Origin: Verrucomicrobiia bacterium | GTDB taxonomy: Bacteria; Verrucomicrobiota; Verrucomicrobiia; Limisphaerales; UBA1319 | Direction of reading: 5' to 3' | DNA length: 64,000 nucleotides | Assembly: GCA_963664225.1 (NCBI GenBank) | Contig: OY760937.1 | Span: 3,872,001 to 3,936,000, forward strand | Part shown: positions 25,089-30,710 of the stretch, one piece after another | Position numbering within the stretch: the first letter of the stretch is position 1 | Layout of the letters: the number at the start of each line of letters is the position of its first letter | Made by a program: the position numbers and the translations under genes | Notes under the pieces: generated by a model | Database searches by the model: none | What the model was told of the DNA's origin: nothing | What the model saw: the letters and a program-made list of their open reading frames with translations, nothing else

Positions 25089-26771
25089 ATGTCCACCGCT
25101 CCAGCATCGAATCCAGCCCCGGCCGGCATCACCGTCAAAGTGAATGGCAAGCCGGTCGAGATGCCCCGCACCACGCCCCATCCGGTGACCGGTCAGCCCA
25201 CGCCCACCACGATGATCCAGGCCTGCGAGGTCGTGGGGGCGATGGTGCCGCATTATTGCTACCATCCCAAACTGCCAGTGGCGGGCAATTGCCGCATGTG
25301 CCTCGTGGAATACGGCACACCGGCGCTGGGCCCGGACCGCAAACCGGTCCTGAATCCCGATGGCACGCCCATGATCAACAAGGCGCGCAACCCGGCCATC
25401 GCCTGCGCCACGCCCATTTCACCGGGAATGGAGATTTACACGGACACCCCGAACGTCAAGGCGATGCGCGAGGGGGTGCTGGAGTTTCTGCTGATCAACC
25501 ATCCGCTGGATTGCCCGATTTGCGATCAGGCCGGGGAATGCAAGTTGCAGGAATACTCGGTGGATTACGGACAGGGCGCGAGCCAGTTCGCGGAGGAAAA
25601 GGTTCACAAGCCCAAGCAGTTTGACCTAGGGCCGCGGATCATGCTCGATGACGAGCGCTGCATCCTGTGCTCCCGGTGCATCCGGTTCACACGCGATATT
25701 GTAGGGGACGACGCGCTGGGATTCATCAATCGCGGCAGTTACAACACGCTCACGCGGTATCCCAACCGGACGTTCGATAATAATTACACGCTCAACACGG
25801 TGGACATCTGTCCCGTGGGGGCGCTGACCTCGAAGGATTTTCGTTTTCAGATGCGCGTCTGGTTCCTCAAGGAAACGCGCAGCATCTGCACGAGTTGCGG
25901 CACGGGTTGCAGTATCGTGATCGGATCGCGCGAGAATAAAATTCTGCGTTATGTGCCGCGCGACAACGACGCGGTCAATTCCTCCTGGATGTGCGACAGC
26001 GGACGCCTCAATTACAAATGGGTCGGCCGGGAGGATCGCCTGGTCAAGGTTCAGAAAAAATCGCCCAACGCGCTGGCCCAGCCGGTTTCGTGGCGCTCCG
26101 CCGTGGAGGAGATCGGCCAAATCATGCGTGTGGCGCTGCCGGGTACCGTGGCCATCATTGCGTCGGCGAGGCAATCCAACGAGGAGCTTTTCCTTTTGTC
26201 CAGGCTGGCTCAAAAATGGTCCGCGGTCACCGATTCGCTTCCCCGCCGGGGTGAGGCGGACAAATTATTGGTGAACGCGGATAAGAATCCCAACACGAAC
26301 GGCGCGCGAATCATGGGGCTCGCGCCGGAGGTGCCGGGTTCCAATATCGAGGTGATCAAAACGGGCATCACGGCCGGAACCATCAAGGTCATGATCGTCG
26401 CGGGCGACAACATTGCATCGGTTATTGAACCGGCGATTTTAGGAAAGCTGGAGGCGCTCATCGTGACGGACATCCTGCCCAATGCGACGACCGCGCTGGC
26501 CCATTACCTCCTGCCCGGTTGCGCGCACGCGGAGAAGCGGGGGACGTTCATCAATGTGAAAGGCCGGCTGCAGAAGTTTCTCAAGGCGGTGGAAGCGCCG
26601 GGAGAGGCGAGGCCGGAGATTGAGTTTTTACGGGAAATCATCGAGCGCGCCACGGGCGAGACCCTGCCTGCGGACATCGAGGGGCTATTCAACATGATGG
26701 CCCGCGAGGTGCCCGCGTTGAAGGGGATCACCTGGGCCTCTGTGGGCGAAACGGGAGTGAACGTGAGTTGA
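25089..26771 (+). CDS. nuoG: NADH-quinone oxidoreductase subunit G (short form)
   Basis: 'YCYHPKL..AGNCRMCLVE', 'NHPLDCPICDQAGECKLQ', 'CILCSRC', 'CTSCGTGC'. Confidence 0.95.
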   Translation: MSTAPASNPAPAGITVKVNGKPVEMPRTTPHPVTGQPTPTTMIQACEVVGAMVPHYCYHPKLPVAGNCRMCLVEYGTPALGPDRKPVLNPDGTPMINKARNPAIACATPISPGMEIYTDTPNVKAMREGVLEFLLINHPLDCPICDQAGECKLQEYSVDYGQGASQFAEEKVHKPKQFDLGPRIMLDDERCILCSRCIRFTRDIVGDDALGFINRGSYNTLTRYPNRTFDNNYTLNTVDICPVGALTSKDFRFQMRVWFLKETRSICTSCGTGCSIVIGSRENKILRYVPRDNDAVNSSWMCDSGRLNYKWVGREDRLVKVQKKSPNALAQPVSWRSAVEEIGQIMRVALPGTVAIIASARQSNEELFLLSRLAQKWSAVTDSLPRRGEADKLLVNADKNPNTNGARIMGLAPEVPGSNIEVIKTGITAGTIKVMIVAGDNIASVIEPAILGKLEALIVTDILPNATTALAHYLLPGCAHAEKRGTFINVKGRLQKFLKAVEAPGEARPEIEFLREIIERATGETLPADIEGLFNMMAREVPALKGITWASVGETGVNVS

Positions 26772-26775
26772 GTGT

Positions 26776-28896
26776 ATGACACGAAACTTACTTAATAATG
26801 CAGGGTTTTGGAATACGAAAAGGACACCCTCACCCCGTACCCTCTCCCTCTGGCGAGGGAGAGGGAGAAGAGTTGCGGGGACGGTGCGCTGGAGAAATGC
26901 AGATGCGCAGGGCGAACGAATGGTTGCTTTTGGGAAGCGAACGGGACAATTTGTGACGCCCCTACAGGGCTTTCTTTATTGGAGTGAACGTTACCTGGGC
27001 CTCCGCTCGCGGACTCGCTCCAGCCCAGGCTGTAATATTACGGCCCTTCGGGCCTGGGACTCGCATCCATCGTTGCTGGACAATACCATGTTCAGCCCGG
27101 ACCATAACATTAAGACCGTTCGGGCCAATACGGGTTTCGGGCGAGAGAGTGGGATCGCGGGGACGGCGTGCAGAGGACTGCCCGCCCTACCACGAACTCT
27201 CCCGGGTCATGCCCATTCAAGTTTGGAGCGAGAGAGTGGGATCGCGGGGACGGCGCGCGGGGGGGAATGTGGACGCGGGGCGCGGACGGATGATTTCATT
27301 TGCGAAGCGATAGGGAATACGAAAAGGTCACCCTCACCCCGTACCCTCTCCCTCTGGCGAGGGAGAGGGAGAAGAGTCGCGGGGACGGTGCATTCAACTG
27401 AGCGTGTCCGTATTGCCATTCCGCAAGCCGATGGCTGGAATATTAAAGGAAACCCCTCTCTCCGGCTCTCTCCCCGCTCGTGCCTCGCAGGGCGAGAGGG
27501 AAGAATTGCGGGGACGTTGCGCTTGGGAAATGCGGATGCGCAGGGCGGACGAATTGTTGCTTTTGGGAAGCGAACGGGACAATTTGTGACGCCCCTGCAG
27601 GGCTTTTTTTATTGGAGCGAACGTTACCTGGGCCTCCGCTCGCGGACTCGCTCCAGCCCAGGCTGTAATATTACGGCTCTTCGGGCCTGCGACTCGCATC
27701 CATCGTTGCTGGACAATACCATGTTCAGCCCGGACCATAACATTAAGACCGTTCGGGCCAATACGGGTTTGGGGCGAGAGAGTGGGATCGCGGGGACGGC
27801 GTGCAGAGGACTGCCCGCCCTACCACGAACTCTCCCGGGTCATGCCCATTCAAGTTTGGAGCGAGAGAGTGGGATCGCGGGGACGGCGTGCGGGGGGGAA
27901 TGTGGACGCGGGGCGCGGACGGATGATTTCATTTGGGAAGCGATAGGGAATACGAAAAGGACTCCCTCACCCCGTACCCTCTCCCTCTGGCGAGGGAGAG
28001 GGAGAAGAGTTGCGGGGACGGTGCATTCAACTGAGCGTGTCCGTATTGCCATTCCGCAAACCGATGGCTGGAATATTAAAGGAAACCCCTCTCTCCAGCT
28101 CGCTCCCCGCTCGTGCCTCGCAGGGCGAGAGGGAAGAATTGCGGGGGCGGCGCGTTTGGGAAATGCGGATGCGCAGGGCGGACGAATGGTTGCTTTTGGG
28201 AAGCGAACGGGACAATTTGTGACGCCCCTACAGGGCTTTTTTTATTGGAGCGAACGTTACCTGGGCCTCCGCTCGCGGACTCGCTCCAGCCCAGGCTGTA
28301 ATATTACGGCCCTTCGGGCCTGGGACTCGCATCCATCGTTGCTGGACAATACCATGTTCAGCCCGGACCATAACATTAAGACCGTTCGGGCCAATACGGG
28401 TTTCGGGCGAGAGAGTGGGATCGCGGGGGCGGCGTGCAGAGGACTGCCCGCCCTACCACGAACTCTCCCTGGTCATGCTCATTCAAGTTTGGAGCGAGAG
28501 AGTGGGATCGCGGGGGCGGCGTGCAGAGGACTGCCCGCCCTACCACGAACTCTTCCGGGTCATGCCCATTCAGGTTTGGGGCGAGAGAGTGGGATCGCGG
28601 GGACGGCGTGCAGAGGACTGCCCGCCCTACCACGAACTCTCCCTGGTCATGCCCATTCAAGTTTGGAGCAAGAGAGTGGGATTGCGGGGACGGCGTGCAG
28701 AGGACTGCCCGCCCTACCACGAACTCTCCCTGGTCATGCCCATTCAAGTTTGGAGCGAGAGAGAGAAGAGAAGGACGCCGCGATCATTCATTTGCTTGAG
28801 GCTATTTGTTCCTTATACTTACCATATTGTTGTAAAGGAATGAATCGATTGCCGATGATTTTTGTCATGCGTCTCAACCCGATAATTGGATTGTGA
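26776..28896 (+). CDS. repeat-derived 706-codon open frame spanning the REP-like array; translation unproven
   Basis: starts 4 nt after the nuoG stop and ends in a GTGA overlap with the nuoH start; content is the translated repeats, with no recognisable domain. Confidence 0.3.
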   Translation: MTRNLLNNAGFWNTKRTPSPRTLSLWRGRGRRVAGTVRWRNADAQGERMVAFGKRTGQFVTPLQGFLYWSERYLGLRSRTRSSPGCNITALRAWDSHPSLLDNTMFSPDHNIKTVRANTGFGRESGIAGTACRGLPALPRTLPGHAHSSLERESGIAGTARGGECGRGARTDDFICEAIGNTKRSPSPRTLSLWRGRGRRVAGTVHSTERVRIAIPQADGWNIKGNPSLRLSPRSCLAGREGRIAGTLRLGNADAQGGRIVAFGKRTGQFVTPLQGFFYWSERYLGLRSRTRSSPGCNITALRACDSHPSLLDNTMFSPDHNIKTVRANTGLGRESGIAGTACRGLPALPRTLPGHAHSSLERESGIAGTACGGECGRGARTDDFIWEAIGNTKRTPSPRTLSLWRGRGRRVAGTVHSTERVRIAIPQTDGWNIKGNPSLQLAPRSCLAGREGRIAGAARLGNADAQGGRMVAFGKRTGQFVTPLQGFFYWSERYLGLRSRTRSSPGCNITALRAWDSHPSLLDNTMFSPDHNIKTVRANTGFGRESGIAGAACRGLPALPRTLPGHAHSSLERESGIAGAACRGLPALPRTLPGHAHSGLGRESGIAGTACRGLPALPRTLPGHAHSSLEQESGIAGTACRGLPALPRTLPGHAHSSLEREREEKDAAIIHLLEAICSLYLPYCCKGMNRLPMIFVMRLNPIIGL
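26810..28765 (+). repeat. hierarchical tandem array of REP-like palindromic modules
   Basis: super-units start at 26810, 27314 and 27947 (504 and 633 bp apart); four 87-bp tandem units 28408-28755; palindromes CCCTCTCCC...GGGAGAGGG, CCTGGGC...GCCCAGG and GTAG-type (CGGCGTGCAGAGGACTGCCCGCCCTAC). Confidence 0.95.
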
Positions 28897-29912
28897 ACGA
28901 ATTTATCATTTTTAGCGCGGTCAAGGTCGTGGTCGTCATCTCGATGGTGCTCTTTATGGTGTCGTACACCGTGGTGGCGGAGCGGCGGGTGTCGGCCTGG
29001 ATTCAAGACCGGATGGGGCCCAACCGGGTGGGACCGTGGGGTCTGCTCCAACCCGCAGCCGACGCCGTCAAGGCCTTCCTCAAGGAAGACTATGTGCCGG
29101 GTCATGTGCGCAAAGTGTTTTTCTGGCTGGCGCCGGCCATTGTGATGTTGCCCGGGCTGATCACCGTGGCGGTCATTCCGTTTGGATCGAACCTGCGCGG
29201 TGAGCCGATGGTGATTGCGGATTTAAACATCGGCATTCTCTACACGTTCGGCATCGTCTCGCTGGGGGTATATGGGATTGTCCTCGCCGGATACGCCTCG
29301 AACTCGAAATACCCGTTTTTGGGCGGCATCCGGTCCACGGCCCAGCTCATCTCGTATGAAATTGCCATGGGATTGTCGGTCATTCCGCTTTTCATGATTG
29401 TGGGCAGTCTCAATCTGAGCCAGGTGGTGGGTTATCAGGCGGGCGGTTTCACCAATTGGCTGGTCTGCAAGGCCCCGTTGTCGTTCATCATCTTTCTGGT
29501 GGCGGCATTTGCGGAAACCAACCGTCTGCCCTTCGATTTTCCAGAGGCGGAGAACGAATTGGTGGCGGGCTACAACACCGAGTTTGGCTCGATGAAATTC
29601 GCGATGTTTTTCATGGGCGAATACGCGAACATGATCGCCGTCTCAGCCATGATGGTGACGCTGTTCTTTGGGGGATGGACGCTCCCGTTGTTCGGGCTGG
29701 ACCAGCCTGCAACCTCGCTGTTTGTGGGTTTGCTGCATATCGCGATCTTCCTCACCAAGCTGGGCGCGTTCCTGGTTCTGATCATCTGGGTGCGGTGGAT
29801 GTGGCCGCGGTTCCGGTTCGATCAACTCATGGACCTGGGCTGGCGGCGGTTTATACCACTGGCGCTGGCGAACCTTCTTATAACGGCGGTGGTTCTGTGG
29901 GCCATTCATTAA
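28893..29912 (+). CDS. nuoH: NADH-quinone oxidoreductase subunit H
   Basis: 'ERRVSAWIQDRMGPNRVGPWGLLQ', 'AETNRLPFD', 'PRFRFDQLM'; GTG start. Confidence 0.97.
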   Translation: MNEFIIFSAVKVVVVISMVLFMVSYTVVAERRVSAWIQDRMGPNRVGPWGLLQPAADAVKAFLKEDYVPGHVRKVFFWLAPAIVMLPGLITVAVIPFGSNLRGEPMVIADLNIGILYTFGIVSLGVYGIVLAGYASNSKYPFLGGIRSTAQLISYEIAMGLSVIPLFMIVGSLNLSQVVGYQAGGFTNWLVCKAPLSFIIFLVAAFAETNRLPFDFPEAENELVAGYNTEFGSMKFAMFFMGEYANMIAVSAMMVTLFFGGWTLPLFGLDQPATSLFVGLLHIAIFLTKLGAFLVLIIWVRWMWPRFRFDQLMDLGWRRFIPLALANLLITAVVLWAIH

Positions 29913-29954
29913 CAAAAGCGTGATGACTAACCATCCAATGATGCGAACGAGGAC

Positions 29955-30105
29955 CAGGAGAGGGAGAAGAATCGCGGGGACGGCGCGCGGTGGGCGGACG
30001 CATGATTTCATTTTGGAAGCGAGCGGGAATATGAAAAGGACTCCCTCACCCCGTACCCTCTCCCTCTGGCGAGGGAGAGGGAGAAGGGTCGCGCGGACGG
30101 CGTTC
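29955..30105 (+). repeat. second copy of the REP-like module, between nuoH and nuoI
   Basis: near-identical to ~27240-27390 (GAAAAGGACTCCCTCACCCCGTACCCTCTCCCTCTGGCGAGGGAGAGGGAGAAG); lies within ORF 29920-30213. Confidence 0.9.
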
Positions 30106-30209
30106 GTGGGGGAATGCCCGCGCTGCCACGCATTGCCGGGCGGTCGGCATTCTCTCATTCGATCGAGTACGTCTGCTATTCCTGCATTCTTTCGCAGCTC
30201 ATTCATGCC

Positions 30210-30710
<501 letters not shown>

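Follow-up and report, generated by a model that had tools for sequence, protein, structure and literature searches.

Short palindromic repeats are found in bacterial genomes in several arrangements. REP sequences, organised in clusters or BIMEs and linked to RAYT transposases (REPtrons, REPINs), are presented as dispersed short palindromes (Nunvar 2010, PMC2817692; Bertels and Rainey 2011, PMC3116915). In the REP clusters treated by Di Nocera 2013 (PMC3733652), units are reiterated in tandem together with flanking DNA and lie between genes of an operon. Bacterial MITEs such as Correia, ERIC and Chunjie, as surveyed in PMC10969869, are elements of ~200 nt with terminal inverted repeats and 9-bp target duplications, present in tens of copies, devoid of an internal transposase and inserted between operon genes. 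The Rickettsia palindromic elements of the same survey are palindromic mobile repeats readable as an open frame; they are located within genes, to which they contribute a conserved peptide, and the family as a whole keeps its frame. A further motif, Acido-Lenti-1 (RF01687; Weinberg 2010, PMC2864571), has a two-hairpin layout, and a 2026 preprint still lists the family as of unknown function.

The array considered here lies between nuoG and nuoH of a Verrucomicrobiia bacterium (assembly GCA_963664225.1); the window analysed is the 64,000-nt stretch from 3,872,001 to 3,936,000 of contig OY760937.1. Like REP systems, the array is built of dispersed short palindromes, one of them GTAG-headed, and one palindrome type flanks a Y1 transposase gene in inverted orientation; like REP clusters, it reiterates units with their flanking DNA between genes of an operon. 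Unlike BIMEs, which alternate in orientation and have conserved linkers, its modules all point the same way, and unlike REP clusters it mixes at least three unrelated palindrome families and has an end of a DDE-type MITE on either side. Its family resembles bacterial MITEs in the features listed above, but the nuo copy has grown to ten times the family size by tandem amplification and foreign REPs, and no target duplication is recognisable around it (2 of 9 positions match). It shares with the Rickettsia elements a palindromic mobile repeat that reads as an open frame; unlike those, it is intergenic, its family lengths are not multiples of 3, and neither a conserved phase nor a peptide-level constraint is found. 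Taken together, the nuoG-nuoH spacer is probably selfish non-coding DNA, namely a MITE relic enlarged internally by duplication and by other palindromic repeats.

The spacer was first singled out in a sequence-only reading for its modular array of palindromes and its 706-codon sense frame (P0001). A check of the ORF confirms that this plus-strand frame starts at an ATG 4 nt past the nuoG stop (26769-26771), has no stop before its end, and terminates in a TGA overlapping the nuoH GTG at 28893 (GTGA). Across the same span the other two sense frames contain 9 (+1) and 20 (+2) stops, against 0 internal stops in +0, and the minus-strand frames contain 23, 14 and 18. The stop-to-stop version of the frame already opens within the end of nuoG. 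That gene ends in NVS here and in NVAF in a same-genus relative, so that the last residue and the stop codon differ, and its TGA falls within the terminal inverted repeat of the insert. The features of the locus are collected in Table 1.

Table 1. Features of the nuoG-nuoH spacer and its flanking genes (positions in the window).
Feature	Position	Strand	Remarks
nuoG	25089..26771	+	560 aa; Pfam NuoG-type domains
Whole composite insert, apparently an expanded MITE	26767..28878	+	ends form an inverted repeat
MITE 5′ part	26772..26892	+	model positions 3-122; nhmmer 17.2 bits, local search
706-codon open frame P0001	26776..28896	+	no Pfam match, no homologue; judged non-coding/incidental
Super-unit copy 1 (633 nt)	26875..27507	+	modules A 26875-27156, B 27157-27243, C 27244-27378, D 27379-27507
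Module-A palindrome (CCTGGGC..GCCCAGG plus small second hairpin)	27000..27055	+	also 27627-27688, 28266-28321
Module-B GTAG-type REP	27160..27194	-	GGTAG followed by 9-bp stem (one mismatch) and 4-nt loop; in every B module
Module-D hairpin, partial MITE core	27441..27526	+	model 38-123; second copy 28075-28159; nhmmer E 2e-21, 2e-20
Super-unit copy 2 (633 nt)	27508..28140	+	modules A 27508-27789, B 27790-27876, C 27877-28011, D 28012-28140
Super-unit copy 3, partial	28141..28509	+	modules A 28141-28422, B 28423-28509
Three extra 87-nt B modules (28510, 28597, 28684)	28510..28770	+	last one merges into MITE 3′ part
MITE 3′ part	28722..28873	+	model 61-204; 29.4 bits local, E 7e-7 genome-wide
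nuoH	28893..29912	+	Pfam NADHdh E 2e-117; GTG start aligns with GTG of same-genus relative

The MITE family that frames the insert was defined from 16 aligned copies with unrelated flanks. It is ~205 nt long and has a central GC-rich hairpin and 23-nt terminal inverted repeats (GGGTGCATGACAAAATTCTTC, compared with the reverse-complemented 3′ end). A genome-wide nhmmer search with the family model gave 107 matches, 26 of them near full length (178-246 nt). Of 17 full copies, four carry perfect 9-bp target duplications, and in two more the duplications agree at 8 of 9 positions. At nuoG-nuoH, the corresponding ends are GTTGAGTGTATGACA at 26767-26781, compared with the reverse complement of 28863-28878 (GTTGAGACGCATGACA). 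The 5′ part holds the 5′ terminal inverted repeat, in which the long frame has its ATG, together with a CCCTCTCCC/GGGAGAGGG hairpin of the C type and the first of the junctions; its match to the model is weak and was missed by the genome-wide search at E<=1e-3. The 3′ part includes the 3′ terminal inverted repeat. Judged from these ends, the whole 2.1-kb insert appears to be one element between the two ends of a MITE. No transposase for the family was found around a match to the repeat ends only. This match had been considered as an autonomous transposon and was rejected as such; it represents a second MITE family of ~320 nt with the same ends and at least 11 copies.

Inside the insert, the modular structure is as the sequence-only reading described it: GCGGGG cores are found at all 13 positions it had listed, the spacings between them are 282, 87, 135, 129, 282, 87, 135, 129, 282, 87, 87 and 87 nt, and all four palindrome types assigned to the modules are present. 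The underlying period is a 633-nt super-unit (TRF period 633 x2.6), whose first 300 nt occur in three copies with 95-96% identity and 0 indels; copy 2 differs from copy 1 by 20 substitutions and again 0 indels. The 87-nt tandem is similar in this respect (TRF period 87 x4.2, 94% matches, 0 indels). Pairwise module alignments support an array of unlike REP-like palindromes linked by a common segment of about 30-38 nt, the junction, which is the sole common part apart from a 73-nt leader in A and C. This leader differs by a 1-nt indel between the two modules, so that the same ancestral sequence is read in two frames. The junction motif itself is real, but the dedicated recombination site that had been seen in it resolves into the right arm of the MITE central hairpin plus the next ~15 nt. 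All repeats in the array are direct, and 12 of 12 junction-motif matches of the array cluster lie on the plus strand. A genome search with each module, which had been proposed as a check, shows that the pieces are dispersed repeats, with 11, 31, 15 and 34 BLAST matches beyond the array for modules A, B, C and D; the module-D hairpin has 37 related copies elsewhere. The C-type hairpin folds more stably than its shuffles (z = -3.3, 0 of 200 shuffles), while the other three segments tested against shuffles have no excess stability (z = -0.03, 0.14 and -0.47). Two other architectures were considered and dropped: a CRISPR array, as the ‘spacers’ are identical and the spacing is 87-282 nt, and an integron cassette array, as the modules contain no genes and lie between nuoG and nuoH. 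The case also illustrates how a REP array can be misread as modular ‘cassettes’.

The palindromes of modules A and B come from other sources. Search for RAYT/Y1 transposases beside matching REPs, likewise suggested beforehand, succeeded for module A and failed for the rest. A RAYT-like Y1_Tnp gene (86.8 bits) at genome positions 3599192-3599530 is flanked by palindromes in inverted orientation at 3598984-3599023 (-) and 3599598-3599661 (+), which match the module-A palindrome with 85% identity over 40 nt and 89% over 64 nt. By this similarity, the module-A palindrome is a REP of a RAYT-like Y1 transposase. None of the B, C and D palindromes lies within 1.5 kb of any of the nine Y1 genes. The module-B core has 34 BLAST matches genome-wide, six in the array and 28 elsewhere, and further genomes of the order contain it too. 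The two-hairpin layout of Acido-Lenti-1 recurs in the module-A palindrome, but the three copies of this palindrome score 29.7, 29.7 and 29.0 bits against the cut-off of 37, and its first loop is much longer. The two Acido-Lenti-1 copies of this genome that do exceed the threshold flank a Y1 transposase, and the motif therefore behaves here as a REP rather than a stand-alone RNA gene. Its behaviour as a RAYT-associated REP gives this motif family a likely identity.

These observations suggest the following course. A ~205-nt non-autonomous MITE would have landed at the nuoG/nuoH boundary in this lineage, and its interior would then have become a mosaic of partial MITE cores (C and D) among segments carrying two foreign palindromes, the RAYT-like Y1 REP of module A and the GTAG-type REP of module B. 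Every module ends in ~30-38 nt equivalent to the hairpin's right arm in the MITE, and replication slippage or unequal recombination at these shared stretches may have produced the 633-nt (x2.6) and 87-nt (x4) duplications; both the order of events and the mechanism of amplification are inferred. Transcription presumably carries the array along as part of the nuo mRNA. The long frame would result from low stop density, an ATG in the MITE terminal repeat and duplicated units that happen to be multiples of 3. The locus is then a worked example of how a transposon relic can swell tenfold in an operon by duplication and trapped palindromic repeats, and of how such swelling can yield a 706-codon frame that gene callers mistake for a protein.

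Relatives indicate that the insertion is confined to this lineage. In the same-genus genome G001, the TAA of nuoG is followed by 12 nt and the GTG of nuoH; in three other family members the two genes are adjacent or overlapping. The insert is missing at the same site in G001, G002, G005 and G009, and on this comparison it is lineage-specific. A 719-aa ‘open frame’ near nuoH in G009 was set aside: in this GC-rich genome, where the two genes are adjacent, it is just an alternative frame across the end of nuoG. Among 107 loci from public contigs, 100 have nuoG and nuoH separated by no more than 67 nt. In relatives, spacers of 132, 195 and 214 nt contain stops in all three sense frames, and one of 1703 nt contains 19-28 per frame; spacers with stops are tolerated there.

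A repeat array of this kind could also be misassembled, and a wrong copy number or order of modules could by itself create the long frame. Short-read contigs from four runs indeed fragment inside the array, and none crosses it. But both outer joints, nuoG into the array (26300-26854) and the array into nuoH (28734-29400), are matched by contigs of X1 and X2 that show 0 differences; X5 also covers the left one, and X4 covers nuoH from 28843, with the reservation that the four runs may be the genome's own assembly data. Furthermore, copy-specific pieces at 26858-26945, 27469-27578 and 28103-28211, with 0-1 differences, represent three distinct junction-to-A joints; no contig links nuoG straight to nuoH; and the genome is a single 5.78-Mb contig. 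An assembly artefact is therefore very unlikely. Two apparent ‘joints’, 27388>27907 and 28144>28563, were discarded, as one flank of each is just 24-27 letters long and additional letters intervene; they probably stem from other repeat copies.

Does the frame encode a protein? It is among the proteins that gene callers predicted for the protein collection, and it is long and has an ATG start, as expected for a real gene or proto-gene making a 706-residue repeat protein with its own function. No Pfam family matches the frame, however, and a homologue search over 8000 scored candidates returned no protein apart from the frame itself. On codon usage it scores -0.147, where 1229 long ORFs reach 0.27 +/- 0.11 and nuoF/G/H/I lie at 0.17-0.34, and its GC1/2/3 of 0.59/0.605/0.566 lacks the GC3 bias of the nuo genes (0.71-0.78). 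Between super-unit copies 1 and 2, the long frame has 5 synonymous and 15 non-synonymous changes; the same comparison in the other five frames gives 6:14, 3:17, 4:16, 10:10 and 3:17, and the substitutions between copies look neutral. Homologous A and C leaders are moreover read in different frames, and the sequence is built wholly of dispersed non-coding repeats. The earlier idea of a ‘proto-gene born from repeats’ thus finds no coding signal in codon usage, GC3 or substitutions, and we regard a functional product as extremely improbable; in all likelihood the frame encodes no evolved protein and is a by-product, not a gene.

Openness might still be selected for its own sake. The sequence-only reading proposed that the array is kept translatable to avoid polarity, and the frame could act as a ribosome relay: ribosomes would re-initiate at the ATG 4 nt after nuoG, shield the array from Rho and be coupled to nuoH by the GTGA overlap, so that only amplification steps in multiples of 3 survive. 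In favour of this, the frame fits the spacer exactly from ATG to overlap, each of the four module lengths is a multiple of 3, as is either duplication unit, and there are 0 indels among copies. Rho is encoded in the genome and C>G windows make up 30% of the 78-nt windows in the array, so an untranslated 2.1 kb could be polar; such windows are as many in the neighbours, though, and their composition fails to set the array apart from neighbouring genes. nuoH is intact and gene-like (score 0.34). The native spacer of G001 has AAGGAA ahead of the nuoH GTG, which is absent in the present genome (G000). Here nuoH shows no clear Shine-Dalgarno sequence and might rely on ribosomes arriving from upstream.

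How unexpected the open frame is can be judged from its parts. As module copies are duplicates, it contains only ~290 independent codons, and with the real piece sequences and random piece lengths mod 3, a complete open frame arises in 6 of 243 combinations (2.5%), which is unusual, yet within reach of a post-hoc pick from many windows; the case was indeed chosen post hoc out of a very large scan. The MITE family elsewhere keeps no frame. Of its 26 near-full copies, 8/9/9 have lengths of 0/1/2 mod 3; five of 15 copies contain no stop in the ATG frame; and in 4/6/2 copies the 3′ end stands in phase 0/1/2 to the ATG. Among tight co-directional gaps with MITE copies, counted on a crude home-made gene map, one of eight has a stop-free sense frame. 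A genome-wide count of gap-spanning open frames was abandoned, being confounded by genes absent from this map. Nor do other arrays keep a frame: of the ten low-coding-score tandem arrays of at least 1 kb in the genome, eight lack an open frame, among them one whose period of 615 nt is itself 3n, and the nuo array is one of only two that are fully open.

These data do not support the claim that the array is kept translatable: the copies outside the array show random frames and contain stops, an outcome which the sequence-only reading had itself named as refuting. For the nuo locus itself, the relatives with stop-containing 132-214-nt spacers and a 1.7-kb insertion at the same junction also speak against selection, and a second NuoH paralogue (genome 5576825-5577718, 41% identity) means that pressure on this operon may be relaxed. 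The copies are young (~3% divergence), so that the lack of stops and indels among ~20-44 substitutions says little, and an arginine-rich 706-residue junk protein made at NuoG/H levels would cost much. Selection on openness, including the re-initiation and coupling just described, is accordingly unlikely, though it is the least unlikely of the alternatives; the stricter form, in which the array is tolerated only as a relay whose ATG was supplied by the MITE and whose every later amplification step was filtered for 3n, is slightly less probable again. If true, selection would act here on frame openness alone, keeping an operon working.

The frame would be irrelevant altogether if nuoH-N were transcribed from a promoter in the AT-rich MITE 3′ part (28770-28890), and transcription or translation coming from upstream would then end blindly in the array. 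The tail has GC1 of 39% and GC2 of 34%, and the candidate TTGCTT-16-TATACT named in the sequence-only reading is present at 28792-28819, within the MITE 3′ part; a TATA(T)ACT box is conserved across the MITE family alignment, and effects of MITE-borne regulatory sequences on neighbouring genes are described in PMC10969869. As a promoter the candidate fares less well: TTGCTT agrees with TTGACA at 3 of 6 positions, and a scan of 26500-29200 gave 0 sites against 0.9 in shuffles, the scan covering sigma-70-type consensus sites only rather than the promoter rules of this phylum. Terminator-like sites in the array numbered 0, against 2.9 in shuffles. Independent transcription of nuoH-N is rather improbable, a shade more so than a selected frame, and the preferred reading is still that of an amplified MITE relic with an incidental open frame.

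A smaller element of related composition is found downstream. Between nuoH and nuoI, a single junction with a C module lies at 29957..30100 (+), and a stop-to-stop frame at 29884..30213 bridges the nuoH-nuoI gap.

The nuoG–nuoH spacer of the host genome (one contig, 5.78 Mb, 56% GC) is an array of modules A (282 nt), B (87 nt), C (135 nt) and D (129 nt), and Pfam confirms nuoF, nuoG, nuoH and nuoI. As the sequence-only reading had described, a frame of 706 codons runs from an ATG to a TGA overlapping the GTG of nuoH, and the 13 GCGGGG cores of the junction motif are found exactly at the positions and spacings that it listed. The array is made of a 633-nt unit (282 + 87 + 135 + 129) repeated 2.6 times with 95–97% identity and no indels, followed by four 87-nt units. 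In contigs from four runs of two studies, which may be the assembly's own data, both outer joints are covered without differences, and copy-specific pieces are found for three distinct junction-to-A joints. A direct nuoG–nuoH join is seen in no contig of the four runs, nor does any contig span the whole array.

Coordinates of the features (in the window unless marked as genome, i.e., host genome, or by a locus name)
Feature	Position	Strand
nuoG stop codon	26769-26771	+
706-codon frame (long ORF)	26776..28896	+
nuoH start codon GTG	28893	+
Spacer, first 120 nt	26772-26892	
Spacer, final 150 nt	28722-28873	
nuoH–nuoI spacer	29913-30113	
Stop-to-stop frame across nuoH–nuoI spacer	29884..30213	
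Y1 gene with flanks like module A	genome 3599192-3599530	
Y1 gene with Acido-Lenti-1 flanks (outside window)	G000:C1:191999-194426	
Loci cited for Acido-Lenti-1/Y1 link	L197, L207, L219, L220	
~320-nt MITE, examples	genome 3870556-3870619 (~1.4 kb before window), 3288160-3288479, 4479330-4479652	
Separated MITE parts, first case	genome 5568799-5569985	
Separated MITE parts, second case	genome 2379446-2381416	
Second complex-I-like locus	genome 5576094-5577718	
85-nt-period arrays, among others	genome 3271747-3273279, 1989448-1990469, 3292301-3293059, 2584338-2585016, 505635-506256	
Independent nuoG–nuoH insertion	L115:2280-3961	

By sequence comparison, the insertion is lineage-specific. In a same-genus relative (G001), nuoG ends with TAA and the GTG of nuoH, aligning with that of the host, is located 12 nt downstream, and the two genes are adjacent or overlapping in three further genomes of the family. 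Of 160 loci on metagenome and genome contigs, 107 allowed both genes to be placed; the gap between them is 67 nt or less in 100 loci, 77–214 nt in six and 1703 nt in one, which contains two ORFs of ordinary appearance and lacks tandem repeats. This last case, on a Limisphaerales MAG contig (L115), is an independent 1.7-kb insertion, with its ORFs of 121 and 224 aa overlapping.

Relatives of the module D hairpin number 37 in the rest of the genome. Alignment of 16 of them with their flanks delimits a sharply bounded element of ~205 nt within unrelated flanks, having terminal inverted repeats (GGGTGCATGACAAAATTCTTC...) and a central GC-rich hairpin. Its profile finds 107 places in the genome, 26 of them near full length, and 9-bp target duplications are perfect in four and matched at 8/9 in two of 17 full copies checked. 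The element is a DDE-type MITE. In the nuo spacer, the final 150 nt align to the 3′ two-thirds of the MITE including the terminal repeat, its 5′ part is matched weakly (17.2 bits) by the first 120 nt, and both spacer ends are inverted repeats of each other. This copy shows no recognisable target duplication. The terminal repeat includes the nuoG stop codon (NuoG ends ..NVS* vs. ..NVAF* in G001), and the ATG of the long ORF is the one within this repeat (GCATGAC).

Modules C and D each represent part of the MITE core (model positions 14–137 and 38–123, respectively), and the junction motif corresponds approximately to positions 88–115, namely the right arm of the central hairpin and the next ~15 nt. 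This junction stretch of 30–38 nt is all that the modules have in common, except that A and C additionally share a 73-nt leader differing by one inserted base, so that the long ORF reads this homologous DNA in two frames. A lone junction and C module is also found in the ~200-nt spacer between nuoH and nuoI, genes overlapping in G001, and a stop-to-stop frame spans this spacer and keeps the C module in the relative frame that it has in the long ORF.

There is also a second MITE family of ~320 nt, with at least 11 copies of 88–99% identity and terminal repeats common with the 205-nt family; no autonomous transposon was found around the repeat-end match that revealed it. At two other places, 5′ and 3′ MITE parts lie 1–1.8 kb apart, possibly as additional copies that were expanded or interrupted; the first pair sits in a gap with at least six stops in each frame.

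The other two modules are of different kinds. Module A harbors a two-hairpin palindrome with a sub-threshold match to Rfam Acido-Lenti-1 (RF01687), and a gene for a 150-aa Y1 (IS200-like) transposase is flanked on both sides, in inverted orientation, by matches to this palindrome (89% over 64 nt and 85% over 40 nt), which is the classical REP–RAYT layout. Module B contains a minus-strand stem-loop with a GTAG head, which has 28 copies elsewhere in the genome and recurs in further genomes of the order. The Y1 genes next to matching REPs that the sequence-only reading proposed to look for are found for module A; types B, C and D flank no Y1 gene in this genome. Mixed clusters in which units and flanking DNA are tandemly repeated, and GTAG repeats in Verrucomicrobia, are described in PMC3733652.

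Acido-Lenti-1 itself appears to behave as a REP/REPIN of RAYT-like Y1 transposases. In the host genome, a Y1 gene lies between the two over-threshold matches, which are inverted relative to each other, and a DDE insertion sequence separates one of them from the gene. Among 61 genomes sampled from the order, 35 have such matches (maximum 83 scored per genome), many as inverted pairs 140–180 nt apart, and a Y1 relative lies within 1.5 kb of 4 of the 30 best loci. Table 1 of the original description (PMC2864571) gives the motif only as a probable RNA, the family is still “abundant ... of unknown function” in a 2026 preprint, and among five listed titles of the six papers under the motif name, none contains REP or RAYT.

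The proposal of a proto-gene is not borne out. The codon score of the long ORF is −0.147, compared with 0.27 ± 0.11 for 1229 long ORFs and 0.17–0.34 for four nuo genes; its GC1/2/3 is flat (0.59/0.605/0.566), whereas GC3 of the nuo genes is 0.71–0.78. Unit copies 1 and 2 differ at 20 positions, with 5 synonymous and 15 non-synonymous changes, a split like that in the other five frames. No Pfam domain was found, and the only homologue among 8000 scored candidates from the near-length proteins of a 5.8-billion-protein collection is the ORF itself.

Alternatively, openness of the frame may be selected irrespective of its product. The ORF matches the extent of the spacer exactly, and a frame stays open in only 6 of 243 combinations (2.5%) when piece sequences are fixed and lengths varied mod 3. 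Rho is encoded in the genome, the C/G profile of the array resembles that of its neighbours, and no Shine-Dalgarno-like sequence was seen by eye upstream of the nuoH GTG. However, copies elsewhere do not keep 3n lengths or open frames as a general rule, which the sequence-only reading had named as speaking against its proposal: the 26 near-full MITE copies have lengths of 0/1/2 mod 3 in 8/9/9 cases, and a stop-free sense frame is found in one of eight tight co-directional gaps with copies, on a crude home-made gene map. The terminal-ATG frame is stop-free in 5 of 15 copies, and counted from this ATG the 3′ end is in phase 0/1/2 in 4/6/2 copies. Among the genome's ten tandem arrays of ≥1 kb with a low coding score, eight contain stops, including one with a 615-nt period, and so do all three sense frames of nuoG–nuoH spacers of 132, 195 and 214 nt in other genomes. 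Weighing both sides, the long ORF is therefore probably a by-product, and selection for openness is unlikely.

A second NuoH paralogue (41% identity) with a NuoI-like partner is encoded in the genome, forming a second complex-I-like locus. Also present are several 85-nt-period tandem arrays, with as many as 18 copies at 90–97% identity; they are neither 3n nor open.
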